Below are positions 6,001 through 53,708 of a DNA stretch of 64,000 bases, one piece after another. The first letter of the stretch is position 1, and every line of letters starts with the position of its first letter. Made by a program: the position numbers and the translations under genes. This stretch comes from a virus, in IMG/VR virus record IMGVR_UViG_3300042898_000852, positions 13,937 to 77,936 of that record; one strand, given 5' to 3'. Below the pieces are notes generated by a model, which had not been told where the DNA came from, ran no database searches, and saw nothing but the letters and a program-made list of their open reading frames with translations.

Positions 6001-9000
6001 ACAATATATGATCAAGGTTCAACATCTTTTGATAATACTAACACCACATTTAGTTCTGACGAAGGCAATACAGGCCAGGTCTATGTGTTTGAAAGAAAAG
6101 ATCAAACATATCACCTAACAGAAAAATTATATGTACCAGACCTACAAGACTGGGAATCATTTGGTTCTAGTGTAGACTGTGTGGGATCTGTGATAGCAGT
6201 GGGATCTCCTACATATCGAGATACAGTTTATAGAATAGGTGTTAATTTTACAACTACTATTCTATTGGGAGCCAGCGGCAATAATGCACTCACAGTAGAT
6301 GTAATAATACAAGACGGAGTTATTGTATCTGCTATAGCTAAAGATTCTGGAGCTGGATATACTGTTAGTGACTTCGACGATGATACCGATGCTATTGAAA
6401 TTAATGGATCTGCAGACAAAGCTCGTATCAAAGTACAGTCGATGTCTGCTGGTACTATAACTAAGTTGTTTGTGTCCTATGGAGGTAGCGGATATACCGG
6501 CAGCGCAGAAGTTATTGAAACTGGCCAGGTTAGATTGTTTACTAAAGATACAACTAAAAATCCGTGGAATACCATCGCCTCAAGACAAGACCTAACTGAT
6601 ATAGAATTGTTTAAAAACATTTCAATATACGACAATGAAACCAATGTGAAAATTTCAGATATTGAAATAGTTGATCATTACAAATTAAAAATACTAGGTG
6701 CAGCCGAACAAGAATTAAAATTCAAAACGCTGTACGATCCTGCAACATATACCAACGGCACCGATCAACAAGAAGTTGATGAATCCCAGGCCTGGTTTGA
6801 AAAACACGTTGGAGAACTGTGGTGGGACCTAAGTACTGCCAAGTGGTTGCTCTATGAACAGGGTGATATTTCCTATCGAATTGGCAACTGGAATCAATTA
6901 GCCTACGGCGCCAGCATAGATGTGTATGAATGGGTAGAATCAAAATATTTGCCCAGCAGATGGAATGTGTTAGCAGATACAACTGAAGGTCTTGCACAAG
7001 GAATTTCAGGCCAGCCGCTATACCCGGATAACACAGCGTATTCTGTAAAGATTTTAACCAATTCTTCAACAGGTGAAACTACAGATACAAAATATTATTA
7101 TTGGGTCAAGAATAAAAATATAGTGCCAAAAAATGTTCCAGGCAGAAGAATTACAGCATTGGATGTAAAGAGCTATATTGAAAATCCAATAGGCACAGGA
7201 CAGCCTATACTATCTCCGATAGCCGCAGATACTTTATTGGCTTTCAATTTTGAATCTTTGATTTCTTCAAATACCGCGTTGATTAATATTCAATATAGAA
7301 AAAATCTAAAAGCCTTGAATTCTATTCACAATGAATATCAGTTATTGACCGAAGGGGTTGCAGACAGTCTCCCAACAGAAACCCTAGAAGCCAAATGGAT
7401 AGACAGTTTGGTAGGGTATGACCTTGCTGGTAACATAGTGCCGGACGCCGGTATACCTATCAAGCAGCGATATGGTCTAAGTTTTAGACCCCGTCAGACA
7501 ATGTTCAAAGATAGATTTGCCATTTTAAAAACAGTAATTATCAACATCAATTCAGTATTAAAAACTCGAGCGTTTTCCGATACTTTGAATTTTATCAATC
7601 TTGGATCAGTTGATCCAGAACCTTCCAGTGTATTAAATCAATATGATGTACGTGTGGACACACTAACTGATCTTGCAGAAGTAGGAACAACAAGAGTTAA
7701 AAAAGCTGTGCTTAGAGCTAATATTGTTGACGGAGAAATTGATACTATTGATATCACAGATTCTGGATTTGGTTATAGAAATGCTCCATTTGTCAACATT
7801 GAAGGGAATGGACAAGGAGCCACAGCACGAGTCACTATAGACAGTCAAGGTAGAATAAATTCTGTCACAGTGTTGTCTAAAGGTCGTCGCTACACATCAG
7901 CTGTAGCAGAAATAAGATATTTTTCTGTGTTAGTTGCACAAGATAGTTCGATCAATAATTATTGGAGTATCTATTCCTGGGATGATATAAGAAAAACTTT
8001 CTTTAGATCTAAGTCTCAGGCATTCAATACTAGCAAATATTGGGAATACATTGATTGGTGGCAAGATGGTTACGGAGTAACTTCTAGAATAGTCAAAGAA
8101 ATCACCGACCTTTATCAAGAACCTTCAATTTCTGTCAAGGTTGGAGATCTAATACGTATCCAAGAATTTGCCAATGGCGGATGGGCAGTATTAGAAAAAA
8201 CTGATCCAACCCAAGGAAATATTCTAGATAATTACATTCTTGTTGGCAGAAAAAATGGTACCATCAATTTAATTATTGATGATCTAGTGTCGGTGCAAAA
8301 TATAGGATACGACAATACCATTGCCTTTGATGCTGATGTATATGATATAAATCCCACACAAGAATTACGCAATATATTAAAAGCGGCCAAAGAAGATATA
8401 TTCACAGAAGACCTTAGAGTAGAATGGAATAAATTATTCTTTACCAGTATTCGATATGCGTTTGTAGAGCAGCCGTATATTGATTGGGCGTTCAAAACAA
8501 GTTTCTTAAATGCCACTCACAATGTTGGAGATTTAGAGCAAAAAATAAATTATAAAAATGATAATTTAGAAAATTTCCAAGAATACATAGAAGAAATCAA
8601 ACCCTATAGAACCACAATTAGAGAATATATTTCTAAATACACAGATAGGGACATTTCATATTCGGGAACCACTGATTTTGACCTACCTCCAGAGTACTCT
8701 ACTCAAGATGGAAAAATATTACCAATTAGATCAAACAGCGACAGATTCACTAGTTATCCTTGGAAATGGTGGACTGACAACAACGGATACGTTGTTACTG
8801 AAATTACTGTGTCTAACGGGGGTGCTGATTACACAGAAGTCCCTAGTGTAATAATCGAAGGCAACGGCACCGGCGCAACAGCTCAGGCATTTGTGGCCAA
8901 TGGCAGTGTTGTAGCTGTAAAGGTTCTAACCAAAGGTCAGGGTTATACACAGGCCCCTAGTGTCAGTCTAGTTGGCGGCAATGGTACCAGTCAAAGCATT

Positions 9001-12000
9001 GCCAAAGCTGTGGCCACAATTGGTGAAACTGCGGTAAGAACATTTGATCTTACTGTGAAATTTGATAGAATTGCTAAACAAGGAATATACCAAACATTTA
9101 CCAAATCTGAAATTTTTACAGCCACAGGAGTTTCTGCAGTTTTCCAATTGCAATATGCACCTAATAGAGACAAGAGCAAGATTTCAATAACTAAAAATAA
9201 TCAAATTGTATTGAACAGTGAATATACAATCACATTGTATACTTCCACAACGGATACATATAGCTTGATCAAAGGCAAACTAATTTTCAATACAACCCCA
9301 ACTCTAGGTGATATAATAGAAATCAACTACGAAAAGAATGTAGAATTATTTGACAGTATAAACAGAATCGAAAACTACTATTCACCCACTGACGGAATGC
9401 GAGGCAATGAACTGGCACAACTAATGACCGGTATAGATTTTGGCGGTGTACAAATTCAAGGAACAACTTTTGATGTTACCGGCGGCTGGGATGCTCTTCC
9501 GTGGTTTACTGACAGTTGGGACAGCGTGGAATCTAACAGTGATTTTTATTATGTGGCCGACGGAAGTACTATTGCAGTAACATTGCCATTTATTCCTGCA
9601 GCGGGAGAACAGATTTCTGTATATTGGAAACCTTCGGGAACCAGGATTCCGGGCGATATACAAACACTCGGCGGCACCACAAATCCACAAGTTATTATAG
9701 AATCAGGAATCACTGCCCCTAAAACAATTAGAGTAGATGATCCTAATTGGATTCAAAATTGGGATAGCTCAAATGCCACTAATCCCAACGCCCAGATGCC
9801 TACATTTGTAGGAGATGGATCTACTAGAGTAGTTGAAATCGGTCAATATATCAGTGTAGAACCAGGTGATACATTGATCTTCCGCAAGTTAGACAGTGAC
9901 GGATCAGTGACCATCACCGACGTAAATCTTTTAGATACTAAATTGAGTGGCGGATCACTATCAAATATTAGTGGTGCGTATCAAACAGCCAACGGCCTCA
10001 CAGCCGAAGAAATTGTCGTAGACGGCGATAAATTTATTAGCCCAGATCAAGTGCCAGCGCCCGAAGAAAACATTCCCGGCCAAGTGCTAGAAAGTGTAAG
10101 CATCAAAGTGTTCCACACCTATCCTCAAGGATCTGCCCTGATACAAAATACCATTGCATATTCGGACGGTGTAAAATTTAAATATGCCATAGGTATTAAT
10201 ATATTAGAAAACAATTCAGTAATTGTTTACATTAATAAAATCAAACAAGAACTGGTTCAAGATTATATTATAGACTATGAAACCAATGAGGTGGTATTTA
10301 ATTATGTACCGATCAGTACCACCATAATTGAAATACTGGCATTTGGTCTAGGCGGTATACATTTATTAGATTATCAAGAATTTGTTGCAGACGGTGCAAC
10401 TACATTGTTTTTAACTAAAGCAATTTTCAGTCAAACTTCGTCAATATTAGTTACAGTCAACGGTGATGCCGTTGATGCTGGATTCCTAGACAGTGCTGAT
10501 TTTACAGATACACTAGATAAAACTTTAGTACAGTTTGGTATTGCTCCGGCTATTGACAGTGTGGTCAAGGTGGTATGTCTAGGACCCGGCCTAGATGCAG
10601 ACTCCACAGGACAGAGTATAATTAGAGTTAATAATCAAACTATTGTCTACGATGGATCAACCACTAGATTTGTAGTAGACAAATTTGTTAATTTATCTAG
10701 GGCCTCCGCGGTATCTAACTTACTGATAAACATTAATGGACAACAGATCAAAGGACCTGATACTGTGTTAACAGTCTACGACGGAACCAACAATCAAATT
10801 ACTATTGGAGTAGATCCAATAAGATTTCCAGGTTCAATAACTTATCCTGATATTCGAGTATTTGTAAACAACGACCCAACGATTCAGGTGGTAGACTATA
10901 CGCTTAATTCTGGATCTAATATTATTACAGTGCGTTCAGATATTCTAGATATAGGTGATGTTATTAGAATTGTTGTTACCGCATTTGCAGATTATCAAAT
11001 AGACAGTGATGAAATTGTTTTCACAGATGCAATTATGGCCACTCTGGAAAACAATGATGACAGCACTGCAAAAGATATAATTGAAATTGTTTGGTTTAGT
11101 GAATATCCTAGTATGGATATTGTAGCTGATCAATTTGCAGGCGGAAAAGTTCAATATCAACTTTCTAGAACTCCTATAAATTCAAATTATGTATGGGTCT
11201 ATGTAAACGGAGTGAGACAAACACAGGACCGTGATTTTAGTGTATCTTTGCCGAGAGGTGTGGTATATCTAGATGTTGAAACAACTACCGAAGATGATGT
11301 AAAAATTGTTGAATTTGGCAATGACGTATATAGATTTCCTAGTGCATATGAAATTTACAAAGACATGTTAAACATATACCATTTCAAACGCTACAGCAGA
11401 AATGATGTTAAACTAGCCGTAGCATTGAATTACTACGATCAAAGTATTACAGTGGTCAATGGTGATCAACTGTATGACCCGACCGACCGACCAGTATCAG
11501 GTATTGTATACATCAACAACGAAAGAATAGAATATTTACAAAAGTCTGGAAATGTACTTACACAGCTTCGTAGAGGAAGTCTAGGAACTGCTATTGCAAT
11601 AATTCACGAAGCGGGTAGTTTTGTAACAGACAGCGGCCCATTAGAAACTATTCCGTATAATGAAACACAACACCGTTTGGATTTTGTCAGCGACGGTAGT
11701 ACATTATTAGTTGGTCCTTTAGATTTTGTTCCTACACAAGGAACTAGAAGTTCATGGTACCGTGGAATTGACATTGCAACAGGTGGCCCCAACATTCCTG
11801 TAACACACGGACCGTGTGATCAATTGGAAATATTTGTAGCTGGTACTAGATTACGTAAAAACCCTGTCGATGTATTTGATGAAGATCTAGGCCCTAACGG
11901 AAGCAAAGAAATAGAAGCAGAATTCAGTGTAGATGGAACAAGCTCTTATATAAGGCTAACAAAAGCAATACCGGCGGGCACCCGTATCACGGTAATTAGG

Positions 12001-12123
12001 AAAACAGGAAGAACTTGGTATGATCGAGGTGTTACAACGGCATCAGCCGGAAGAACTCTACAGAAAAATGCTACTGCGATCAGCAATTTTATTTTACAAA
12101 AGACAACCATCATACCAGAATAA
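1..12123 (+). CDS. Giant virion structural protein (baseplate/tail-associated), 5'-truncated, >4040 aa
   Basis: Open from the window edge. Contains FG-GAP-like propeller repeats (FGDAIAIS..LAVGAP, FGQSQAMS..LVVGAP, FGSAISIS..IVVGA), CBM5/12-like inserts (YxxGDIVxxNG) and GxGY..P.V.IEGNG.GA repeats typical of myovirus baseplate/tail proteins. Sits upstream of the fibre genes. Confidence 0.75.
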   Translation: MLCDKHVNIIKSIQFAKKSYTEFKNNFIKFAETATYNLDPVEFVDDILATMSKIKTQKDAFADSDMVGSGAYNLKEYIVEDTEITTFALNTKFNLTQLSRTAVYIYINNTQLTHGIDYTFNDTFGFVSISKSLAEGDVIQIKEYVSSSFCFIPPTPSKLGLYKTFIPSLFLDDTYVTPINVIQGHDGSITVAYGDFRDDVLLELEKRIYNNIKQVYTEDLFSQDAILGGYYGSSTYTKQELDSVISSEFLRWFSETNVDYLTNTFFDSEDSFTYTYSNMGDPTGQLNLPGWWRGVYTWLYDTDRPHRCPWEMLGFSQQPSWWEDQYGAAPYTKNNLLLWEDLASGIIRQGPRVGTYDRYKRATLLNHIPVDGDGNLLSPFESGAATNFVLYNNKGTFKFGDLAPVEYAWRSSSDYPFVIMLALCLMRPYEFIIETLDKSRIKVNKIGQTVNKNTNLFFKNSDIVIPTSGGNQTSGLVNYVVDYLRSRGLTESVLQKKIDNLDVNLSTRLSGFVDQSQQKYILDSKNPSASTSNIFLPQENYDINFNISAPISSPSYSAVVVEKLASGFKLFGYDISEPYFKYFEAVKSANDPLLSVGGVSENFIDWEANKIFGNGTIIRVSDIFYRCIKSHTSGIEFDAQFWQRIAKLPLVGAVEVFRRRTVNSAAVKELPYGTVFSSLQDIADFIIGYDAYLQSQGFEFTGYDGNLESAKDWITSIKELLFWSKHKWAESSLITLSPAAAKIELNIDIGVADNLLDSFYDYNILKVDGTILPVEFINVNREFKKITVDVVNDSDGIYFFRCYFVLKEHVTIFDDRTVFNDVLYDKPTGYRQERIKSRGFRTVDWDGDYTSPGFLFDNVNIQIWQPFTDYKLGDIVNYKSYNWTSLVNQQGAIQFKDSNWTKLDTTPAKGLISNFDVRVSQFEDYYNVDADGAGASQRELARHLIGYQTREYLQNLAEDNVTQFKLYQGFIREKGTANAVVKVFDKLSRITADSIVLDEEWAFNVGRLGGIDQLNEIEFEIVKDNLLVNPQAIVITNGPISKNSLDKYLRVNQTNFTRSLIPYSVDINPLTVYQGITRNAGYVKTDQIELFVRSREDILSLDISSLVENSHIWITFDNASWTVLRLNLNTALIIEDIVKDSTTSVITVTVSRKHGLTVDEIVGIKDIVNFTGFYKVVAVTDYTFGVQDGPGPVPSAPDISSIQYNIYQLTQSRFNSYQDLGDQTAALLKQGSKLWIDNTDATVGNWEVVEKQRLYVEKPITNFGATDPRNTGRAVVYADNLKQVITGIPSANSVMVYSETVTGLSVKEILQPETEFTNTTANSFGDAIAISPDNVWLAVGAPLASGVPSRFKGIYEDSYIDPLIPAASYRAGDIVLQNGKLWEATNDQQPGDGSTNTLNTLSVNFRNEDWKLVDVVYANSSGSLGPVKQGMVVLYKRKNNAWELQHTILSPRIEANEKFGSSISIGVSGANYYMSISAPGSLNDLGRVYLYKYTGTTAGSTTQILTFNGTSAVNYAVNTITFSRNHNYITGQLVRYLNGTYAGDDKSLATSPPPPEDYTILYAIRITDTVIQLATSVVNATTGTEIDLKDFGIDDSSSHTLISTATVGWKQMGDPEYRGLYTSSVSAIYSQGSKVWYEGRIYQALEDTYGDGTSLDLSTSNSWQVLDESVTEVSLPSNIALIDSGNVLPILQDSSTAILGSIYPLVTAGNFKLGEIYRIEDYGTTNFQLIGNNPAAGDGLTFKATGVGSGTGTARWISYQFAELIKAGDMFGQSQAMSRDGSVLVVGAPESDGIYIANYKGVWTDYQTYYEDDIVKYNGDYYRLVDYDPLTGGEADSSEDSTYITTSKNDVPTNSSLQGPWTFVSSEISNPSGKIFIYKRNTNDVYELAQTITAGSLIEISDVLNIDNLNTGDKFGAAVDIDYNGTTIIASSPQADVKSTDQGAVFVFKSAQSDTISYRLKQRLISHENYANEYFGSAISISPATEKIVVGASNASFNLFTIYDQGSTSFDNTNTTFSSDEGNTGQVYVFERKDQTYHLTEKLYVPDLQDWESFGSSVDCVGSVIAVGSPTYRDTVYRIGVNFTTTILLGASGNNALTVDVIIQDGVIVSAIAKDSGAGYTVSDFDDDTDAIEINGSADKARIKVQSMSAGTITKLFVSYGGSGYTGSAEVIETGQVRLFTKDTTKNPWNTIASRQDLTDIELFKNISIYDNETNVKISDIEIVDHYKLKILGAAEQELKFKTLYDPATYTNGTDQQEVDESQAWFEKHVGELWWDLSTAKWLLYEQGDISYRIGNWNQLAYGASIDVYEWVESKYLPSRWNVLADTTEGLAQGISGQPLYPDNTAYSVKILTNSSTGETTDTKYYYWVKNKNIVPKNVPGRRITALDVKSYIENPIGTGQPILSPIAADTLLAFNFESLISSNTALINIQYRKNLKALNSIHNEYQLLTEGVADSLPTETLEAKWIDSLVGYDLAGNIVPDAGIPIKQRYGLSFRPRQTMFKDRFAILKTVIININSVLKTRAFSDTLNFINLGSVDPEPSSVLNQYDVRVDTLTDLAEVGTTRVKKAVLRANIVDGEIDTIDITDSGFGYRNAPFVNIEGNGQGATARVTIDSQGRINSVTVLSKGRRYTSAVAEIRYFSVLVAQDSSINNYWSIYSWDDIRKTFFRSKSQAFNTSKYWEYIDWWQDGYGVTSRIVKEITDLYQEPSISVKVGDLIRIQEFANGGWAVLEKTDPTQGNILDNYILVGRKNGTINLIIDDLVSVQNIGYDNTIAFDADVYDINPTQELRNILKAAKEDIFTEDLRVEWNKLFFTSIRYAFVEQPYIDWAFKTSFLNATHNVGDLEQKINYKNDNLENFQEYIEEIKPYRTTIREYISKYTDRDISYSGTTDFDLPPEYSTQDGKILPIRSNSDRFTSYPWKWWTDNNGYVVTEITVSNGGADYTEVPSVIIEGNGTGATAQAFVANGSVVAVKVLTKGQGYTQAPSVSLVGGNGTSQSIAKAVATIGETAVRTFDLTVKFDRIAKQGIYQTFTKSEIFTATGVSAVFQLQYAPNRDKSKISITKNNQIVLNSEYTITLYTSTTDTYSLIKGKLIFNTTPTLGDIIEINYEKNVELFDSINRIENYYSPTDGMRGNELAQLMTGIDFGGVQIQGTTFDVTGGWDALPWFTDSWDSVESNSDFYYVADGSTIAVTLPFIPAAGEQISVYWKPSGTRIPGDIQTLGGTTNPQVIIESGITAPKTIRVDDPNWIQNWDSSNATNPNAQMPTFVGDGSTRVVEIGQYISVEPGDTLIFRKLDSDGSVTITDVNLLDTKLSGGSLSNISGAYQTANGLTAEEIVVDGDKFISPDQVPAPEENIPGQVLESVSIKVFHTYPQGSALIQNTIAYSDGVKFKYAIGINILENNSVIVYINKIKQELVQDYIIDYETNEVVFNYVPISTTIIEILAFGLGGIHLLDYQEFVADGATTLFLTKAIFSQTSSILVTVNGDAVDAGFLDSADFTDTLDKTLVQFGIAPAIDSVVKVVCLGPGLDADSTGQSIIRVNNQTIVYDGSTTRFVVDKFVNLSRASAVSNLLININGQQIKGPDTVLTVYDGTNNQITIGVDPIRFPGSITYPDIRVFVNNDPTIQVVDYTLNSGSNIITVRSDILDIGDVIRIVVTAFADYQIDSDEIVFTDAIMATLENNDDSTAKDIIEIVWFSEYPSMDIVADQFAGGKVQYQLSRTPINSNYVWVYVNGVRQTQDRDFSVSLPRGVVYLDVETTTEDDVKIVEFGNDVYRFPSAYEIYKDMLNIYHFKRYSRNDVKLAVALNYYDQSITVVNGDQLYDPTDRPVSGIVYINNERIEYLQKSGNVLTQLRRGSLGTAIAIIHEAGSFVTDSGPLETIPYNETQHRLDFVSDGSTLLVGPLDFVPTQGTRSSWYRGIDIATGGPNIPVTHGPCDQLEIFVAGTRLRKNPVDVFDEDLGPNGSKEIEAEFSVDGTSSYIRLTKAIPAGTRITVIRKTGRTWYDRGVTTASAGRTLQKNATAISNFILQKTTIIPE

Positions 12124-18550: not shown

Positions 18551-18591
18551 AATCTACTCAGATAAATAATAGAATAATATTGGAGTAGATT
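18551..18591 (+). promoter_or_regulatory. TAAATA promoter in the loop of an SD-sequestering hairpin
   Basis: Perfect 9-bp inverted repeat AATCTACTC (18551-59) / GAGTAGATT (18583-91) overlapping SD GGAG; TAAATA at 18563-68. Confidence 0.6.
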
Positions 18592-18592
18592 G

Positions 18593-20341
18593 ATGGCATA
18601 TCAAGTAGACAAATTTAATGGCACGTTTTTAGTCTCAGTAGAAGACGGTACCATTGATACCACTACTGATCTACGCTTCTTAGGTAAAAATTACGCAGGC
18701 TATGGCGAAGTACAGAACGAAAATTTCTTACACCTTTTAGAGAATTTTGCCAATACTTCTGCTCCACCGAGAGCTGTGTTAGGTCAAGTTTGGTACGACA
18801 GCACAAACAAAAAGATTAAATTCTATGATGGATCTAGATTTAGAACATCTGGCGGATCGGAAGTTAGTGCAACAGCACCTTCCGGACTTGTTGCAGGAGA
18901 TTTTTGGCTAGACACTACCACTGAGCAACTGTATGTATCTAATGGTACATCCTTTGTGCTGGTAGGACCGCAAATAGCAGAAGACCCCGGAGCCACAGCT
19001 GTAGAAGTGGTGGTAGTAAAAGATGTCAGTAACGTAAATCACACAATTATTAAATTTACTGTTAGCAGCGATACGCAATATATAATGAGCAAGACTGCGT
19101 TTACATTGAGTCCGTCAGTGAATCCTATTACTGGTTTTAGTGAAATCAAGAAAGGTCTTACTTTAATCAATACTCCGTCTACCGGGGTGACCACAGATGA
19201 TCATATTCATTGGGGCACAACTTCTAATGCAGCTAAACTAGGAGGATTTGCAGCCAGTGAATATCTAAGAAATACCAATGCACTGTTTCCAAACGGTGCC
19301 AAGTTTTATGATGTTGGTTACACCTTGGGTGACACTGATGATTTAAAAGTATTTGTTGAATCCGGTGATCAACCGATTATTTCTAATCAACTAGGATCTT
19401 CTGGATCTCAAACAATCACAGTGAGAATTGTGACATCTGGCGGTGATAGAGACTATGTATTTGGTGCAGATGCCATCTACCCAGCAGCAAACAATGCAAG
19501 AAATCTAGGTGCTACATCTGCAAGATGGGCCACAGTGTTTGCTACCACATTTAATGGGGCTCTTACTGGCAACGTCACTGGCAACGTCACTGGCAACGTC
19601 ACTGGCAACGTCACTGGCTCAGTCAACGGATCGTTGACTGGTAATATAATTTCGTCCACAGGAGTCACTGTATTAAATTCCGGTGCAGGTGCAGGTACAG
19701 CGGTATATGTGGGATCTGTAAACGGAACGGCCAGTAATGCCTTGCAATTGAATAATAAAATACAAGATGTTACTGCTGCTGCCGATACCATTGCGCTAAG
19801 AGATGCTAGTGGTAATCTAGTGGCCAATCAATTCACCGGCACAGCTACCCAAGCAGACACACTATTGTGGAGCGGCTCGTATAGAACAGCAGCTAGTACT
19901 TCAACAGCTAACACTGTTGTGATTAGGGATGCAAGTTCTAACATTTATTGTAATGTTTTAAATGGAACTGCTACTTCAGCACAGTATGCTGACCTTGCAG
20001 AAAAGTACCTAACAGATCAAGAATACGATACCGGCACAGTGGTAGTTGTCGGCGGCGAAAAAGAAGTCACTGCTAGCACTTGGGGTAAACGTGCTATTGG
20101 TGTAGTAAGTGCTAATCCTGCATTTATGATGAATCGAGATCTAGAAGGCGGTACATATATTGCCCTTAAAGGTCGAGTTCCAGTAAAAGTAATAGGATCA
20201 GTTAAAAAGGGAGACAATCTAATAGCAGCCAATGACGGTTGTGCTTCTGTAGCAGTTCACCATTCCAGTGAAGTGTTTGCAGTGGCATTAGAATCTAATA
20301 GCGATACAAGTGTGAAACTTGTTGAAGCTGTAATATTGTAA
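18593..20341 (+). CDS. Tail fibre protein with C-terminal intramolecular-chaperone/autocleavage-like domain
   Basis: Paralogue of 16737-18548 (TSAQYADLAEKY...ALKGRVPVKV); ATG 18593 lies 7 nt after GGAG. Confidence 0.75.
   Translation: MAYQVDKFNGTFLVSVEDGTIDTTTDLRFLGKNYAGYGEVQNENFLHLLENFANTSAPPRAVLGQVWYDSTNKKIKFYDGSRFRTSGGSEVSATAPSGLVAGDFWLDTTTEQLYVSNGTSFVLVGPQIAEDPGATAVEVVVVKDVSNVNHTIIKFTVSSDTQYIMSKTAFTLSPSVNPITGFSEIKKGLTLINTPSTGVTTDDHIHWGTTSNAAKLGGFAASEYLRNTNALFPNGAKFYDVGYTLGDTDDLKVFVESGDQPIISNQLGSSGSQTITVRIVTSGGDRDYVFGADAIYPAANNARNLGATSARWATVFATTFNGALTGNVTGNVTGNVTGNVTGSVNGSLTGNIISSTGVTVLNSGAGAGTAVYVGSVNGTASNALQLNNKIQDVTAAADTIALRDASGNLVANQFTGTATQADTLLWSGSYRTAASTSTANTVVIRDASSNIYCNVLNGTATSAQYADLAEKYLTDQEYDTGTVVVVGGEKEVTASTWGKRAIGVVSANPAFMMNRDLEGGTYIALKGRVPVKVIGSVKKGDNLIAANDGCASVAVHHSSEVFAVALESNSDTSVKLVEAVIL
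19565..19618 (+). repeat. Perfect 12-bp tandem repeat (ACTGGCAACGTC)x4.5 encoding (TGNV)n
   Basis: Read directly; identical codons in all copies. Confidence 0.95.
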
Positions 20342-46749: not shown

Positions 46750-48177
46750 TTAACTAGATCCGTCTCTGCTCATTCCGACTTGGCTCAAGATCATAATACT
46801 TAGTACGCCTGGAATAATTAACCAAGCTGGGCCACCGAAAATTCCTGCGATCGTTGCGGCTGCGCCTCCTAGTATTCCTGTTAAACTTGTAAGTTTTTCG
46901 CCCAAGGTTGCACTTGGATGCCAAGCATCGATGCCACCTAATGTTCCCATACCGCTCTTTGGATCTTTTTTCTTCTGACCAAAGAAGTCACCAATTGGAC
47001 CTTCTTCAATGGATTCACTAGCAGCTTCTGGTTTAACACCTAGTGCCTTAGAAATTGCTTTGATATTTGCTAATGTAAAATCGCTTTTATCTGCACGGTC
47101 TTTACCTAACACTTGTTTAGCAACTGATGCCATTTTATCTTTTTCTTCATCTGAAAGTTTTGGTGCTAGTTTAGACATCAGCATGCTTTTGACTTTGTCC
47201 ATCGTGCCTTCATCTAAACGTGAGCGATTTTCAACTATTTTTTTTTTCGACTCGCTCAATACATCATACATTTCAAATGCACCACCCATACGTTCGTAGA
47301 CCATACCAGCATAAACATCAGCCTTCATGCCTTCGCCAATCTTGGTTTTAGCAACACGTTGTGCCCAAGCCCACAGTTGATTGTCTACGGGATCAATCTG
47401 TTGCTGGCCACCACTTTCAACAACCAGTGCCATCATTTCTTTGAATGATAGATTAGATTCAATTGATTCTTTAACGGTCTTCTTTTTTCCAAAGAATTTT
47501 TCTTGAGCAGCACTCATTCCCTTCTTGCCGGCTGGCTTGTTACCGCCTTTGTCAGCAACTGCCTTCTTCATTGGCTCTTTCTTGTCACCGTCTTTGTCCA
47601 TGTCTAAGAAGTCTGGCTTAGCACCTTCGTCCATGATCTTGGACATCTTCTTTTTCTTATCTTCTTTTTTCTTCTTGGCCTCAGCGGCGCTTTCTTCTTT
47701 CTTGGCCTCAACCATCTTCATGAACTTGCTTTTGAATTGTGGCTCAATGCTTTCTACTTTCTTGCCATCTTTAACACGAGTCACTGAACCCTTGCCGTGT
47801 GCTTTTTCATAGTCCTTGCTGTCTTTGGCATGGGCTTTGTCTGCTGCCTTGTCGCCTTCCTTGTCTGCTGCACTTTGTGATTTAGCATTTGACTTAGGTT
47901 CAGTATGCGGGTCATCGCTGAAACGATTTGGATTTTGTTTATGCTTGGTTACGCCTTTTGTTGAACGATCAATAGTTCCACCTGTAGACGATTTTTCTTC
48001 TTTTACATCTTCTTCTTTCTTCTTCTTGGCTTCAGCAACATAAGTTGTTTGGCCAGCTAGAACACGAAGTTGCGCATCTTCGTTGAGCTGCACAGCTTTG
48101 TCTAGTACAGGGGCTGCAGGAGTTGTCGGTGGTGCTTCCATCCCGTCAAGTTTGCTGAGTATTGCTTTAAAGTCCAT
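46750..48177 (-). CDS. Lys/Glu-rich modular protein, probable internal-head/core polyprotein
   Basis: Many hydrophobic-x-E sites (LNE, VAE, VKE, MVE, MDE, LSE, LDE, IEE); KPDFLDMDKDGDKKEPMKKA module; C-terminal hydrophobic segment. Confidence 0.5.
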   Translation of the reverse strand: MDFKAILSKLDGMEAPPTTPAAPVLDKAVQLNEDAQLRVLAGQTTYVAEAKKKKEEDVKEEKSSTGGTIDRSTKGVTKHKQNPNRFSDDPHTEPKSNAKSQSAADKEGDKAADKAHAKDSKDYEKAHGKGSVTRVKDGKKVESIEPQFKSKFMKMVEAKKEESAAEAKKKKEDKKKKMSKIMDEGAKPDFLDMDKDGDKKEPMKKAVADKGGNKPAGKKGMSAAQEKFFGKKKTVKESIESNLSFKEMMALVVESGGQQQIDPVDNQLWAWAQRVAKTKIGEGMKADVYAGMVYERMGGAFEMYDVLSESKKKIVENRSRLDEGTMDKVKSMLMSKLAPKLSDEEKDKMASVAKQVLGKDRADKSDFTLANIKAISKALGVKPEAASESIEEGPIGDFFGQKKKDPKSGMGTLGGIDAWHPSATLGEKLTSLTGILGGAAATIAGIFGGPAWLIIPGVLSIMILSQVGMSRDGSS

Positions 48178-48178
48178 T

Positions 48179-48490
48179 TTAGTTTCCTTGATTTTTTCTG
48201 TTCTGCCACTGATCTTTGAGGCTTTGTTTTACTGAGTTTTGAATAGATTCTTCAAAATCTCGAGGTCCTGATTCAATTTGTCCAGCTGCCATTTTTTCAT
48301 ATTCCATATAGTGATATACGGAACTGATATAATCAGCAGCTTTGGTAATTTTTGATTGTACCCATCCATCTAATTCGTCGTTTTCTCCGATCAGTTTAAA
48401 CAATTTGGCAGAGTACTGATTGAGCTTATATAGCTCAGCTCTGGCCATTTTGGCTTCGTGATCGTCGACTGGTTGTTTTTCTAGGTCCAT
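48179..48490 (-). CDS. Hypothetical (probable head) protein
   Basis: DHEAKMA...LDGWVQSKITKAADYI..VYHYMEYE; TAAATA 5 nt before ATG. Confidence 0.55.
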   Translation of the reverse strand: MDLEKQPVDDHEAKMARAELYKLNQYSAKLFKLIGENDELDGWVQSKITKAADYISSVYHYMEYEKMAAGQIESGPRDFEESIQNSVKQSLKDQWQNRKNQGN

Positions 48491-48498
48491 AAATGTAT

Positions 48499-48681
48499 TT
48501 ATCTTCTTATAATAGATTCGCTGGGAGACTTACGTTTTCTTTTTGCAGTGTTATTTTGTTTATAACTGCCGCCAAATAGTGTGCCTACAGCTGAACCCGT
48601 GCCACCTTTAATAAACGTGGCTCCCATACCAGCACTTGTAGCACCTGCTGTAGCTGTTTCCAACAGTTCTTTAATCTTCAT
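48499..48681 (-). CDS. Small protein with capsid-targeting-like N terminus
   Basis: MKIKELLE|TATAGATSAG. Confidence 0.5.
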   Translation of the reverse strand: MKIKELLETATAGATSAGMGATFIKGGTGSAVGTLFGGSYKQNNTAKRKRKSPSESIIRR

Positions 48682-48685
48682 ACTG

Positions 48686-49021
48686 TTATTTATTTTTCTT
48701 GGCGCGGCCTGCTTTCATGTTAGCTAACCAATGTGCTAGTTGCCCTTTACGCCCACCAGATTTAGCAGTTTTACGTAAACTACTTACTGATGCTTTAGTA
48801 TTAATACCATGACGTTTAGAATCACCTTTATCTTGTGGATTCCGCCCGTCAGCAAAGTTTTCGTGCTCTACGCTTTCTCCGCCCCCACCATCGCCACCTT
48901 CACCTGAGTCTCCGCTGTAGCCAGCATAGTATCCATAGCCGCCGTACGGTCCCGGTCCGTAAGCAGCCCAACGGGGTCGCTTACGTTTTTTTCTTTCAAT
49001 TATAAATTCTACAGCTCTCAT
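48686..49021 (-). CDS. Two-module basic protein with capsid-targeting-like N terminus
   Basis: MRAVEFIIE|RKKRKR...GGGE|SVEHE|NFADGRNP...[10 protein letters not shown]. Confidence 0.55.
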
Positions 49022-49377
49022 TCGTGAAATTGATGATCGTCATGATAATTATCGGCTACAGAGAAACTTGAACCACAGCCACAGGATGTTTCTGCATTAG
49101 GATTACTAATACTAAATTGACTGCCTGATAGATCTTCTTTATAATCTATACTGGCACCCTGCAGATATTGCATACTGGTAGCATCAACTAATACTTTAAA
49201 GTTACCTACAGGAAATTCGAAATCGTCTTCATTTTGTTCTTCGTCAAGAGTGAATCCGTAGCTCATACCACTACATCCTCCACCCTGCACAAACGTACGA
49301 AGTTTAAGATTTGGGTTGCTTTCTTCAGCAAGAAGATCGGTAATTTTAGACTGAGCGTTTTCTGTAATTGTAATCAT
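49018..49377 (-). CDS. erpA: Fe-S cluster insertion protein, HesB/IscA/ErpA family
   Basis: [43 protein letters not shown]. Confidence 0.9.
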
Positions 49378-49574
49378 ATTGGTTTTTCTCCTGTTAGGTA
49401 TGGCTTACTAAACCATAATTGAAACCATTCTTTTGTGCCTGGTTGAATATTATGTTTTTTCATTAGTTCGCCTTTTTCATTGCCTGTAATACTTATATTG
49501 CTGCCGTCGTAGAGTTGATAGCCTTTGAATTCATTAATGCCTGCTAATTTTTTAATATGTTCCAGCTCATCCAT
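49374..49574 (-). CDS. Hypothetical (probable head) protein
   Basis: Start [15 protein letters not shown]; [29 protein letters not shown]. Confidence 0.55.
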
Positions 49575-49575
49575 A

Positions 49576-50598
49576 TCACATTCCGCCGCCCACAAGGTCT
49601 CCTGGTTTAGCCGACTTATTTTTCTTAGCACCATCATTGCGCCACTGGCCTGCTGGTCCTTCCTTGTGTCCAATCTTGGCGCCAGCAAACATGGAACCCT
49701 CGCCGACCTTAGTATCCATTTGTTTTAATAGTTCTTGTGCCTTTTCAACACTAATCATATATCTACCAAAGCGATCGGGATTGGCAGCCTTTTGTAGATA
49801 CTGTTTACTAAATCCAGTCGGTGTCGCAGCCGCCGGTGCATCAGCCGCCGATTTATTGTCAGATGGTGCGGTTACTGTTGCTGTGGGTTTAAATCCACCA
49901 GTGTAGCCACCTTGTCCATCGGGTGTAACTCTAGCATTAGCACTACCTGCACCAAATGCCATAGCCCCTGCAAGTCCAGCAGCAGCAGCACCTTGTTTAA
50001 TTCCTTTCCAACTAACTTCATCTAAACTTTCTGTAGCTGTTTCGCCTGTAATAGAAACGGTCCATTGCTTACCACTTGATGCTGATTTTTTAGCAGCCCA
50101 ATCTTTTAGCTGTTGATAGTGCGCCTGTTCACGCTGATCATCTGCATACCGTCCTCGACCTTTGAATACTTTCCACTTTTTACCGTTGATGTAGACAGCA
50201 AAATTGTTAGGTGGTTCTGTATTGCCTTCATCCCAATCTTCGGGGTCTCTTACCCTCTCAGCCACACCTTTTTTAGCATCGTTGTCAAATTGTTTGTTAG
50301 TGGCTCGGTTGATGCCTTTGAAACGCTTGTCGCCTCGAGAATAGTTGCCATCTATATCTGCTTTCTTGGCATCTGCTCCAGCGGCCTTTTTATACTGTGC
50401 TAATTTTTCAGTAGACAATTCACTTAAAATACTTTCCATAGTGGCAAGTTCTTTCTTGTGTTTGACATCACCTTGCTTCTCAGCCTTCTTCTTGTCTTTG
50501 TGTTGCCCAGCTTTGCCAGCCAGCGAGGCGTTTTTAGCCACAAAGTTTCGAGGCTTTGATTCTTTTTTTAGTTCTATAATAAATTCTTTAGCTTTCAT
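49576..50598 (-). CDS. Modular internal-head-like polyprotein
   Basis: Start MKAKEFIIE; modules delimited by LSE, KGVAE, LDE, KVGE. Confidence 0.55.
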   Translation of the reverse strand: MKAKEFIIELKKESKPRNFVAKNASLAGKAGQHKDKKKAEKQGDVKHKKELATMESILSELSTEKLAQYKKAAGADAKKADIDGNYSRGDKRFKGINRATNKQFDNDAKKGVAERVRDPEDWDEGNTEPPNNFAVYINGKKWKVFKGRGRYADDQREQAHYQQLKDWAAKKSASSGKQWTVSITGETATESLDEVSWKGIKQGAAAAGLAGAMAFGAGSANARVTPDGQGGYTGGFKPTATVTAPSDNKSAADAPAAATPTGFSKQYLQKAANPDRFGRYMISVEKAQELLKQMDTKVGEGSMFAGAKIGHKEGPAGQWRNDGAKKNKSAKPGDLVGGGM

Positions 50599-51094
50599 AC
50601 TTGATCCTTTAGTCCAACCCAAATCCATCACGAATTTCGTCCATTAGTTCGCTTACACTGGCTTCTGTATTAGGTAGTCGTCCTTTGAAAGCATCATCGA
50701 TATGTGGATCACCTTCTTCTACTGTGCCTAATGCGTATGTAAAAAATCCATCCCCAGCATTATCAATAATAGCAATGTACCACTGATCCTCAACTTCTGC
50801 ACCTCTAGTGGTAAACATAAATGCATCATCGTTCATACGCTTGCCTTTCCAGCCCGTGGCTTTCATTGCACTGTTAACTTTGTTAACAACTTCGGGCCAA
50901 GGTAATACATTGCCTAACGATGCTTCCGCCACACCTTGCTTCAATGCAGCCTTTTTGGCTTCAAGGTCTTTAATCTTCTTGGCGTGCATCTTGTTCATAG
51001 AACCTTTGTATTGTGCTGCTGCTTGACCTTGTTGATGAAACGCAATCTTCTTATCAATGTCTGCGGCTGTTTCAGAGCCTTCCGCCATACCTTG
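50257..51094 (-). repeat. Dispersed 15-bp repeat encoding (Q/K)G(V/M)AE
   Basis: CAAGGTATGGCGGAA 51080-94, CAAGGTGTGGCGGAA 50924-38, AAAGGTGTGGCTGAG 50257-71 (all on -). Confidence 0.8.
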
Positions 51095-51688
51095 TTCAAG
51101 CCAAGGTTCTAATCCTTGACGAACAGCAGAAAATACTTCATCAGCATTTCTTTGTAAGCCTGCTGGCAATCCTGTTTTGAATGCATCAAAGTCATTCACA
51201 ATTGCCGCAGCCCGCATCTTACTTGCACTCATACCTTCAGCACCTTCTGCATCGGGATCTCTAGCACCACTAGACTCAATCTTGATTGATTTTAAATTAT
51301 AATCAATGCCGTTTTGTTTATTGAACAATTCTGTAAATGCAGGTACACGATCTGAGCCGCAGATAAAAATAACATTTTCAAAACCTTGTTTTTCTAAACT
51401 TTGAAGAACGCCAATGGCAGTACCTACAGATGTATCCCCAATATCAATATTGGGAAATGCCTGCTCAATGAACCCCAACTTGATATCAAAAGGTAACGGG
51501 TTTTCCAATCTTGTTTTGTTCTTGCCTGTGGATTTATGAGTTTGCGATACAAACAAGAAATGAGCATCAGCCTTCTGTTTTAAGATAGCCGCAACTACTT
51601 TCTGGTGACCAATCGTGGGAGGATTCATTCTGCCAAATGCAACGGCAGCAGTCTTACCTGCCTGCTCAAACAGTTCTAGAAGCTTCAT
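50609..51688 (-). CDS. HxGH-superfamily nucleotidyltransferase (cytidylyltransferase/NMNAT-like) with two appended C-terminal modules
   Basis: FGRMNPPTIGH, NPL, GSDR, MSASKMR; N-terminal MKLLELFE; QGMAE and QGVAE junctions. Confidence 0.75.
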   Translation of the reverse strand: MKLLELFEQAGKTAAVAFGRMNPPTIGHQKVVAAILKQKADAHFLFVSQTHKSTGKNKTRLENPLPFDIKLGFIEQAFPNIDIGDTSVGTAIGVLQSLEKQGFENVIFICGSDRVPAFTELFNKQNGIDYNLKSIKIESSGARDPDAEGAEGMSASKMRAAAIVNDFDAFKTGLPAGLQRNADEVFSAVRQGLEPWLEQGMAEGSETAADIDKKIAFHQQGQAAAQYKGSMNKMHAKKIKDLEAKKAALKQGVAEASLGNVLPWPEVVNKVNSAMKATGWKGKRMNDDAFMFTTRGAEVEDQWYIAIIDNAGDGFFTYALGTVEEGDPHIDDAFKGRLPNTEASVSELMDEIRDGFGLD

Positions 51689-52023
51689 TATTCGTAGTCG
51701 CCTTTTTCCATATGTTTTTCTTGTTCAGTGGCTATCATCTTGGCCAATTCTATCAGTTTGTCTTTGGGAAATTTGTCTTCAGCACTTTCAATTTCAAACT
51801 TTTCACAGTATGCTTCTTTACAAGATTCCAAAGGACGGATATATATTTTATATGCATTTGGATTACCTCGATGTTCTTTATGACGATTTACAGCTGGAAA
51901 AAAATAATTTTTTAATACAGTATCATCGTTATCGATAAAGAATTTCAAGTCATTAGTCCAGTCTATGTCAGTCTGGTCTGAAGTAGGTGCCCCTATCGCA
52001 CTAAACATTTCTCTTAATAACAT
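51688..52023 (-). CDS. Hypothetical (probable head) protein
   Basis: Start MLLREMFS; DLKFFIDNDD...FFP. Confidence 0.55.
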   Translation of the reverse strand: MLLREMFSAIGAPTSDQTDIDWTNDLKFFIDNDDTVLKNYFFPAVNRHKEHRGNPNAYKIYIRPLESCKEAYCEKFEIESAEDKFPKDKLIELAKMIATEQEKHMEKGDYE

Positions 52024-52610
52024 TACCAGCTCCTGCAACTCCAGTAACGGGCTTTGTGGCGCGGTCCTGGATTAGCACAATTGTGTCTAGCACGGAAACT
52101 TTTTCTACGTGCGGGATTTGATTTCTTAATACGCATTTTTTTATCGCCAAAGTTTACTTTGACAACGTTGCCCTGCGGATTTTTTACATATACTTTAGAT
52201 TTCTTTACATCACCAGCCATCTTCTTGCCCAGCTGTACTTCGCGACCTTGATATTTTGCTTCATCTACTTCGTCGTCTTCTTTGATCTTTTCGCAGTCGT
52301 TGACACGTTTGCCTGCGTTCTTGCCAGTACCTGGTTGAGTGCCAGTCTTTCTATAACCTTTCCAGCAGCTCTTAGGTCCAGCAACACCTTCTATAAGTTC
52401 ACCTTCAAAAAATTGTACGCCTTCGTTGGTTAGCATTTTTAGGGCAGTATCATCTAGTTCAACCACAATGCCGTCTTCTAAAACTTCTACTACGTGGGTA
52501 GAAATTTCAAAATCAGGACTAAAACTGATACCAAACTCATCTCCAATTTCCGGTGTATTAGGTTCTTCTAAATTTTCTAGTATAGATAATTTGTCTAAAA
52601 GGTCTCTCAT
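52023..52610 (-). CDS. Modular protein ending in a basic Cys/His domain
   Basis: LIE|...SCWKGY...VNDC module; VDE|AKYQGREV...VNFGD...RKSFRARHNC...ARYWSC module. Confidence 0.6.
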   Translation of the reverse strand: MRDLLDKLSILENLEEPNTPEIGDEFGISFSPDFEISTHVVEVLEDGIVVELDDTALKMLTNEGVQFFEGELIEGVAGPKSCWKGYRKTGTQPGTGKNAGKRVNDCEKIKEDDEVDEAKYQGREVQLGKKMAGDVKKSKVYVKNPQGNVVKVNFGDKKMRIKKSNPARRKSFRARHNCANPGPRHKARYWSCRSW

Positions 52611-52614
52611 AGCA

Positions 52615-52650
52615 TTTCCTAAAGTAATACTATATTTATCGCTTTAGAAA
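52615..52650 (-). promoter_or_regulatory. TAAATA promoter in the loop of an SD-sequestering hairpin
   Basis: On -: TTTCTAAAG pairs with CTTTAGGAAA (one G bulged, contains AGGA); TAAATA at 52633-38. Confidence 0.5.
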
Positions 52651-52652
52651 AT

Positions 52653-53030
52653 TTAATAATTATAACGAACTTGCGTTATTGTGCCTTCGATCAGCCTATA
52701 ACCGAGACGGATCCAAACAAAATTGCCGGTGAAGTTGCGTATTTCGTTGATTGCAAGCGGTGTGCTATCTAGTGATTCTAGATTTTCTGCAGAATTGTCA
52801 TAGACAACATCTACCCAGTCATTGTCTCCGGGATAAAGTTCTAGTGAACCCTGTAGTTTAACTGATCCTTTGAAGTTGTTAAACTCAAACATCACAGTAT
52901 GCAAGCCACCATTCTTTCTATGATAGCCTGCTGCTTTGAATTTATCAGTGAATACATAGGAAATTCCCGAAGTACCATCCCAGGTTTCGGTGCTAGTTGC
53001 GGATAATAAAATAATGCTTTCTGTGGACAT
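52653..53030 (-). CDS. Hypothetical beta-rich (probable virion) protein
   Basis: GLHTV...FKGSVKLQGSL...NFTGNFVWIR; TAAATA 4 nt before ATG. Confidence 0.55.
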   Translation of the reverse strand: MSTESIILLSATSTETWDGTSGISYVFTDKFKAAGYHRKNGGLHTVMFEFNNFKGSVKLQGSLELYPGDNDWVDVVYDNSAENLESLDSTPLAINEIRNFTGNFVWIRLGYRLIEGTITQVRYNY

Positions 53031-53708
53031 CTAGTATTTATCGACTATGATGTATTCGTAGATCTTGCCTAGCACCTGTGAATCACGCATTTTCAACATC
53101 AGCAAGGTATTTGCATCTTCAACATACATATATCTTCGATCCCAATACCAATCAGTGTACTGGAACCAACTTTTAACAGATTCTGAAATCAAAATCCTAT
53201 GTTGTTGAGTATCTAACCAAGTAAGATAATTGTTTTTCGAATCTGGGTTACCTTTTAATTTATGCGGCAATAGATAAATTTTGTATCTATACTTGTTATG
53301 AGGTAATTTTTTTGTTAGAATAAAATCAGTATTTTCCAGCAGTTCTAAATTATTTCCCGTGGGTGCGTATCTGTTTACAACAATAGATTCAAATGTTGAT
53401 GATAGACTATCAAAAATAGATTCATCGTTCACATACAAATCAATAGTGTTGGATTCAATACGTTGTGCAAAGTCTTGTTTATTCAAATTTGATAAAAATG
53501 TAGTGAGTGCTAGAAAATTTATCTTATTTTTAAGAGCTTTGTGATGCGAGGAAAACACACTTTTCTTATAGGTTGTGGGACTTATAAGATAACTAATAGT
53601 TTCATTATAGTTCAGTAGTCTATACAAAGACACACCGGGACAAAACAGTGTGATTTTATACAACCACTTGTTGTAAAATTTTCTCTTTGTAAGTTTAGGT
53701 TTCTGCAT
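53031..53708 (-). CDS. Hypothetical protein
   Basis: 225-aa ORF coupled to clpA. Confidence 0.55.
   Translation of the reverse strand: MQKPKLTKRKFYNKWLYKITLFCPGVSLYRLLNYNETISYLISPTTYKKSVFSSHHKALKNKINFLALTTFLSNLNKQDFAQRIESNTIDLYVNDESIFDSLSSTFESIVVNRYAPTGNNLELLENTDFILTKKLPHNKYRYKIYLLPHKLKGNPDSKNNYLTWLDTQQHRILISESVKSWFQYTDWYWDRRYMYVEDANTLLMLKMRDSQVLGKIYEYIIVDKY

Follow-up and report, generated by a model that had tools for sequence, protein, structure and literature searches.

In-frame exchange of protein modules at a short coding DNA word in mosaic genes of a giant T4-related freshwater phage, and its possible second meaning as a prohead-protease site

Two mosaic genes and their linkers

The window, a stretch of 64,000 nucleotides (nt) covering positions 13,937 to 77,936 of the IMG/VR virus record IMGVR_UViG_3300042898_000852, carries two neighboring genes on its minus strand, here called gene 1 and gene 2, in which protein modules are joined in frame by a short linker whose canonical form is QGVAE followed by Gly. 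The first-pass annotation, made from the letters and a list of open reading frames (ORFs), had picked out four copies of this linker. The coordinates and sequences it gave proved correct, and all four copies lie in frame on the minus strand at module borders. The elements of the two genes are listed below (aa, amino acids; a slash marks a junction).

50609-51688, minus strand: gene 1, 359 aa, consisting of a nucleotidyltransferase, a linker, a 47-aa module, a linker, and a C-terminal domain (ORF list and module map)
51095-51688, minus strand: module NT, gene 1 residues 1-198, a HIGH-type nucleotidyltransferase, the "cytidylyltransferase" of T4-like cyanophages
51080-51094, minus strand: linker 1, QGMAE, CAAGGTATGGCGGAA, gene 1 residues 199-203; left border of a 156-nt insertion or deletion (indel) relative to locus L003
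50939-51079, minus strand: 47-aa helical cassette (m47), present in the window and missing from a 99%-identical relative
50924-50938, minus strand: linker 2, QGVAE, CAAGGTGTGGCGGAA, gene 1 residues 251-255
50612-50923, minus strand: Cdom, the C-terminal 104-aa alpha/beta domain, a mobile module with copies in relatives
49576-50598, minus strand: gene 2, 340 aa, four modules A-B-C-D
50572-50598, minus strand: leader at the N terminus of gene 2, M-K-A-K-E-F-I-I-E, similar to the T4 capsid-targeting sequence
50257-50271, minus strand: linker 3, KGVAE, AAAGGTGTGGCTGAG, gene 2 residues 110-114, between modules A and B
50029-50031, minus strand: codon of Glu190 in the junction T-A-T-E/S, gene 2, between modules B and C
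49699-49710 (K-V-G-E), minus strand: degenerate linker K-V-G-E/G-S, gene 2, between modules C and D

The N-terminal module of gene 1 is matched by PHROG cytidyltransferase families at E values of 1e-49 and 1e-33, and its fold model matches PPAT and NMNAT structures (Foldseek E 4e-6; target TM-score 0.65-0.73). A HIGH-type motif, T-I-G-H, occupies gene 1 residues 25-28, right behind the first strand. Together, the Rossmann-like fold, the N-terminal (H/T)xGH motif, and the family-level matches identify NT as a HIGH-motif nucleotidyltransferase; sequence searches of Pfam and of the PDB with this module returned no matches. Homologs of NT were found in 556 phage records (tblastn). CAAGGTATGGCGGAA and CAAGGTGTGGCGGAA are identical at 14 of 15 positions and enclose the 47 residues of m47 in frame. 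In an AlphaFold model of gene 1, the sole internal segments with a predicted local distance difference test score (pLDDT) below 50 are residues 199-205 and 251-262, i.e., the two linkers, which split the chain into three structured parts: a Rossmann domain, a helical hairpin, and an alpha/beta domain. For the last of these, Cdom (model pLDDT of 82), searches for a function gave no Foldseek match below E 0.01, a best VIA Z of 8.1, a level stated to be common for unmatched models, and a protein atlas match (score 0.77) to an unnamed cluster only. Gene 2 contains DUF7230 (Pfam) at residues 26-60 of a 351-aa ORF with a GTG start, corresponding to approximately residues 15-49 of the 340-aa gene with an ATG start, and its module C opens with an export-signal-like stretch.

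The window is part of a 77.9-kb viral contig in IMG/VR that CheckV puts at ~22% of a genome. Since the contigs that share its gene block include relatives of 353 kb and 364 kb, the window belongs to an uncultured freshwater giant phage. Homologs of T4 gp23 are encoded by the relatives (Pfam Gp23, E 1e-82 to 1e-99). A prohead protease of the T4 gp21 type (Peptidase_S77, E 1e-24 to 1e-27) accompanies this capsid gene in each of the six related records that have it, and in one near-complete relative the protease gene lies at L123:1444-2070. The two homologies place the clade among T4-related phages. G007, a contig labeled "99% complete," was considered as a relative lacking the protease and was set aside: its capsid gene is absent too, so the head block is missing from that contig.

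Module exchange at the linkers and conservation of the DNA word

A contig that is 99% identical to the window aligns with it over 51079-53140 and 47251-50944 (~6 kb). The sole difference in those ~6 kb is a 156-nt cassette, made up of the 47 residues of m47 and one linker and bounded by the repeat, with the repeated word forming the overlap between the two alignment blocks. The cassette is absent also from other relatives that share the architecture of a nucleotidyltransferase plus domain; therefore, it was most likely gained recently in the lineage of the window. The repeat had been proposed to be a recombination joint at which modules are gained or lost, and this indel bears the proposal out. 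A further cassette, the C-terminal ~166 aa of the 475-aa product of a neighboring gene, contains two hydrophobic helices and is absent from the 99%-identical contig L040. The break in L040 falls right after V-L-S-E, with the gene ending three codons later, and this junction does not have the QGVAE word.

Each of the seven modules of gene 1 and gene 2 recurs with other partners. The m47 cassette reappears in two other, unrelated polyproteins (L039/L427, 91% identity; L428, 84% identity), with linkers on both sides. Downstream of NT, there are 32 distinct contexts, nearly all of which start with a hydrophobic-x-Glu junction. Copies of Cdom, mostly 93-98% identical (63-77% in three lineages), are preceded by no fewer than five different contexts (L003, L004, L007, L037, L038, and L060). 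Module A is joined to other downstream partners in relatives. Module B follows 41 distinct upstream contexts, 34 of which have Glu at P1, the position before the junction. Many relatives match gene 2 only over residues 1-189/190, that is, up to the Glu190 junction. Module C sits behind Y-A-E/S on the nucleotidyltransferase in L016/L017; module D has 17 distinct upstream contexts and, in L015, is fused straight to the nucleotidyltransferase after K-V-S-E/A. On comparison with relatives, all four of the sites reported initially are module junctions.

To put numbers on this, homology breakpoints were found at 41 of the 50 strict linker sites (82%) in the loci compared, against 34% for random positions of the same proteins and 0-36% for permuted motifs. 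Counted in reverse, 40 of 1421 homology breakpoints fall at the strict motif, against 13 expected. Most of the 1421 are noise from low-complexity Lys-rich sequence, so the per-site measure is the informative one. It had been anticipated that orthologs would differ by modules with breakpoints at the repeat, and whole modules do differ there. Comparison among relatives shows the linker to be a border at which these phages add, delete, and exchange whole modules, and its reading as a recombination joint is well supported.

A 650-aa multi-module protein of the cultured Methylophilales phage Melnitz-3 (L304:1495-3447) has the homolog of the nucleotidyltransferase as its N-terminal part, and its C-terminal module matches the C terminus of a separate 195-aa gene of the window (52023-52610). 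Module chaining therefore reaches cultured marine T4-like phages, with other linkers.

The canonical linker QGVAE-G is encoded by one DNA word, CAAGGTGTGGCGGAAGG. Inside the window alone, the repeat falls short of significance, with 5 near pairs of 15-mers (one mismatch or none, no more than 300 nt apart) where codon-block shuffles give 1.4 ± 1.0. When as many as three mismatches are tolerated, the consensus has 8 matches in the window, against 1.8 expected. The repeat is weak at this scale, and its significance derives from the comparison with sequences outside the window. At least 120 stretches of IMG/VR contain the exact 17-mer, many of them multi-copy, with up to four exact copies each. 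Of its 162 copies, 161 are in the QGVAEG frame, and the open frames concerned reach ~1500 residues with as many as seven linkers. A synonymous control word, which encodes the same peptide in preferred codons, was found in 50 stretches, all single-copy and on unrelated contigs. Large relatives have 2-6 copies of the word each, all on the coding strand, and the reversed control pattern gave zero.

Codon usage was determined for 49 distinct linkers gathered by protein homology to the linker-free parts of both genes, not by the DNA word. Val is encoded by GTG in 28 of 38 cases (74% versus a background of 13%), Ala by GCG in 23 of 34 (68% versus 6.5%), and Gly by GGT in 39 of 49 (versus 40%), a bias with P = 1e-17 to 1e-20. 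The retention of GTG and GCG, remarked upon from the window alone, thus extends across the linkers of relatives, and synonymous positions, which were expected to be conserved, are not free, as judged by this bias and by the control word. The word is also retained in lineages in which the nucleotidyltransferase is only 41-45% identical to that of the window. At such a distance, unconstrained silent sites would have been randomized. Linkers with unrelated flanks have 64% of their codons identical, against 39-51% in the flanks, whereas linkers with homologous flanks show codon conservation no higher than their flanks; the excess is confined to unrelated contexts. The conserved DNA word is present at some but not all of the junctions.

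These comparative data leave next to nothing of the idea that the repeat is a chance similarity with no common origin or role. In its favor, the window-only near pairs, five where 1.4 are expected, are only modestly above expectation; the codon bias, the indel, the breakpoints, the word counts, and the mobile cassette refute it.

Since the DNA is kept at silent positions, we suggest that in-frame recombination uses the word as a joint of short homology and that exchange would in turn keep the word uniform. The silent-site conservation could be due to such homogenization by exchange, to a dedicated enzyme, or to a translational pause. The latter two would give the word a nucleic-acid function of its own: a dedicated nuclease or recombinase might act on it, making for a true cassette-mobility system, or rare codons and the Shine-Dalgarno-like AAGGTG might cause a pause at module borders. 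GTG and GCG are among the rarest codons of these genomes and yet dominate the linker, the word is identical between unrelated contexts, and the cassette gain in the lineage of the window takes two crossovers, all of which speak for such a function. We nevertheless consider it very improbable, given that many functional-looking junctions do not have the word, that the variants with Ser or Thr derive from GCG by one base change, as descent predicts, and that bacterial genomes provide scattered single copies only and no lead. A host clue or a Chi-like role for the word was likewise rejected, as the single copies in the bacterial-genome scan are scattered over unrelated, mostly GC-rich taxa.

The word resembles promoter-early-stem-loop (PeSL) cassettes in role, not in kind. 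In both, variable modules are bordered by short conserved stretches of DNA at which related T4-type genomes recombine (PMC2839356, PMC4122927). PeSLs, however, are intergenic regulatory elements of ~50 nt, with an early promoter and a stem-loop terminator, that shuffle whole genes, whereas the word is 15-17 nt long, lies inside ORFs in a single frame (all copies but one), and shuffles modules inside genes. In the gp38 adhesins of the T4 superfamily, conserved in-frame glycine-rich motifs bound variable segments and are thought to permit swapping within the coding sequence (PMC3157838). However, gp38 is a single protein family with hypervariable loops, as opposed to a set of unrelated modules, and its motifs are not known to have been assigned a protease role.

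Predicted cleavage in the prohead

At the protein level, the junctions follow a rule that reaches beyond QGVAE, i.e., a hydrophobic residue, a small residue, and Glu, then Gly, Ala, or Ser, and this rule is kept where the DNA differs. The first-pass annotation had proposed QGVAE as a protease site. The underlying hydrophobic-x-Glu rule fits, but QGVAE is too narrow, the rule being hydrophobic-x-Glu followed by a small residue. Proteases of the gp21 family cleave after Glu (PMC5694885, PMC9026906), and the gp21 sites in the T4 record are hydrophobic-x-Glu followed by Ala or Ser. Replacement of this Glu by Asp prevents processing in T4 (PMC9026906). In an alignment of capsid proteins, the T4 site L-T-E65/A (Glu65/Ala66) lies opposite L-A-E/S of the relatives. 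From the shape of the junctions and the analogy with T4, it is plausible that the linker is a cleavage site of the prohead protease. The gp21-type protease of relatives and the disordered linkers in the fold model of gene 1 also count in favor of this reading.

Three further sets of observations, independent of one another and all indirect, bear on this prediction. First, the two genes have leaders of a kind known from T4, in which IPII and IPIII begin with MKTYQEFIAE followed by A (T4 record); the role of this capsid-targeting sequence has been described (PMC9026906). The leaders of gene 2 and of two neighbors fit its pattern of ~10 residues with hydrophobic-x-Glu at the end, and gene 1 starts with the leader-like M-K-L-L-E-L-F-E, the L-F-E end of which is followed by Gln, a less typical residue at P1'. 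Targeting-like leaders were found on 38% of linker-bearing ORFs and on 1.7% of control ORFs taken from unrelated phages. Two loci, L227 and L206, have the linker directly behind the leader, at the position where T4 removes its leader. Moreover, a 10-residue motif that starts the predicted mature capsid protein also starts many small cargo proteins and modules. This motif is preceded by Glu in 36 of 36 distinct contexts of related loci, including a 60-aa gene of the window, where it could reflect substrate mimicry or a common contact in the capsid interior.

Second, cytidylyltransferases have been detected in virions of the cyanophages S-CREM2 and S-SZBM1 purified on cesium chloride, and such enzymes are, according to the authors, frequent in cyanophage virion proteomes (PMC10665884, PMC9146016). 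S-CREM2 gp154, an annotated virion protein, is 30% identical to the nucleotidyltransferase of the window (E 5e-23), and the homologs of S-CREM2, SynMITS9220M01, and Melnitz start with leaders that end in hydrophobic-x-Glu followed by Ala. The virion cytidylyltransferase of T4-like cyanophages is a homologous enzyme (30-40% identity) with the same type of leader (PMC10665884, PMC9146016), but the versions in cultured phages carry other appended regions and no QGVAE linkers.

Third, signal-peptide-like stretches, which have basic residues in front, a core rich in Ala and Gly, and A-x-A at the end, start 2-14 residues past a junction in 73% of cases, compared to 15% of random positions. Some of them are Tat (twin-arginine translocation)-like, and several stand directly behind canonical QGVAE linkers. 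Both Tat-like (S-R-R-G-F-L) and Sec (general secretion)-like signals occur right after linkers inside polyproteins (L022, L231, L217, L222, and others). This placement is expected if the junction becomes a free N terminus and suggests that some of the released modules would be destined for the periplasm.

The linker might instead be an uncut flexible spacer, in which case the word would hitch-hike with module recombination and the products would be intact multi-module fusion proteins. The recombination role is well supported by itself, the DNA word is conserved beyond the needs of the peptide, and the disordered linkers of the fold model fit a plain spacer equally well. We regard an uncut spacer as unlikely, however: junctions that have diverged in DNA still hold hydrophobic-x-Glu and then a small residue, the linker is directly behind the leader in some ORFs, the same P1 Glu precedes the motif that is common to the maturation site of the capsid protein, and export-signal-like stretches right after junctions make sense only at a free N terminus. 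The linker could also be cut outside the capsid, by a cytoplasmic phage or host protease in the infected cell, such that the signal-bearing modules go to the envelope of that same cell. Such cutting would agree with the Sec- and Tat-like signals directly behind junctions and with the position of the genes among early and replication genes rather than head genes. We deem it more doubtful still, because T4-like targeting leaders are enriched >20-fold in these ORFs, homologs of the nucleotidyltransferase occur in virions, the junction rule agrees with that of the gp21 family, and no other candidate protease was identified.

We therefore favor cleavage in the prohead and propose the following. Gene 1 and gene 2 would code for mosaic "cargo" of a giant freshwater phage related to T4. 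Their small, independent modules, among them the nucleotidyltransferase, the helical hairpin, the alpha/beta domain, basic peptides, and modules bearing signals, follow one another in frame, separated by linkers of the type hydrophobic-small-Glu then Gly/Ala/Ser. T4-like N-terminal leaders would address the proteins to the prohead, where a gp21-type protease may cut after the linker Glu and free the modules inside the capsid. The freed modules would be delivered with the DNA into the next host, and some of them might then expose N-terminal export signals. Taken as a whole, this proposal of mosaic cargo proteins, a linker that is a recombination joint, and cleavage and delivery by the capsid is probably correct. 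More tentatively, and with somewhat less than even confidence, we put forward the stronger claim that a single 17-base word has two meanings across the clade, as an in-frame crossover point for cassettes and as the prohead-protease site that releases those cassettes in the capsid.

Several points weigh against this proposal. The protease and capsid genes are both absent from the window's own 78-kb contig (~22% of the genome), so the link to the protease depends on relatives, and gene 1 and gene 2 adjoin replication genes, outside the head gene block. At P3, the gp21 sites of the T4 record show Leu, Ile, or Thr, and the linkers show Val or Met. Glu is missing at 7 of the 41 contexts upstream of module B, and L428 has one Q-G-V-A-G variant. 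Hydrophobic export signals are unusual for cargo of the capsid interior. As to recombination, an identity of 15-17 nt is short for classical homologous recombination, and we infer both the mechanism and the cause of the silent-site conservation. Finally, the strict word is down to 0-1 copies in the near-complete relatives G001-G004, so the clade does not use it evenly.

The closest parallels to the proposed packaging lie in two groups of phage proteins. The T4 internal proteins IPI, IPII, IPIII, and Alt share with the present genes a short N-terminal leader of the pattern M-K-x-x-x-E-F-I-x-E, and their cleavage by gp21 after the Glu of hydrophobic-x-Glu has a putative counterpart here. They are also diverse, fast-evolving cargo delivered with the DNA, as the present modules would be. 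The conserved leader of T4 has been proposed as a means by which evolution can load a variety of proteins (PMC9026906, PMC3012670). T4, however, has a separate gene and one leader per cargo, whereas here several modules share one frame and the presumed cut site recurs internally, with its DNA fixed at silent positions. In phiKZ, 201phi2-1, and SPN3US, many head-internal ejection proteins are cut after Glu at A-x-E or S/A/G-x-E, some of them multiply, but these cuts mostly strip long propeptides (PMC5694885). Chains of unrelated modules, a conserved DNA word, and module exchange bound to the site are not described there. By analogy, we liken the system to a combination of T4-like internal proteins, addressed by leaders and processed by gp21, with motif shuffling in the style of PeSLs and gp38. 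Literature searches for the linker motif, polyproteins, and prohead proteases returned no publication that describes this system; the motif search gave alpha-synuclein and unrelated papers.

If the linker is cut, then a few polyprotein genes would supply the capsid with many small, exchangeable proteins as cargo. Such an organization of cargo as polyproteins is familiar from RNA viruses and, to our knowledge, is undescribed for tailed phages. Exchange would then take place between modules, in frame, at a dual-coded site, as opposed to between whole genes at intergenic elements. Should the word indeed have both meanings, each phage population would possess a combinatorial, quickly reshuffled library of capsid-delivered proteins, including enzymes as well as modules whose Sec or Tat signals become exposed only once they are cut free, which would take them to the periplasm of the next host. 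In the view of the first-pass annotation, the modules would be injected effectors; a function could be assigned to none of them except the nucleotidyltransferase. Linker and leader together would mark many uncharacterized modules as candidate early host-takeover or counter-defense factors in abundant freshwater phages, and the arrangement could serve as a model from nature for packaging several cargoes in T4-type phage vectors. To this picture the window adds a clean and most likely recent cassette gain on an enzyme and a link to the virion proteomes of cultured relatives, as well as the export-signal argument and the fold model with its disordered linkers.

Neighboring genes and further features

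Three neighboring genes are listed below.

48686-49021, minus strand: 111 aa, leader M-R-A-V-E-F-I-I-E; a relative in L038 carries Cdom as an insertion
48499-48681, minus strand: 60 aa, leader ending in L-L-E, then the 10-residue motif that starts the predicted mature capsid protein of relatives
46750-48177, minus strand: 475 aa; the C-terminal ~166 aa (46750-47250) are the further cassette described above

Amid the block of leader-bearing genes lies one for an IscA/HesB-type iron-sulfur cluster protein (49018-49377, minus strand; Pfam Fe-S_biosyn, E 4e-20). Elsewhere in the window, a giant ORF enters from upstream (window positions 1-12123, plus strand; 4896 aa in the full contig), and a 12-nt tandem repeat, ACTGGCAACGTC, is present in ~3.5 copies at 19563-19605 on the plus strand, within the ORF at 18590-20341.

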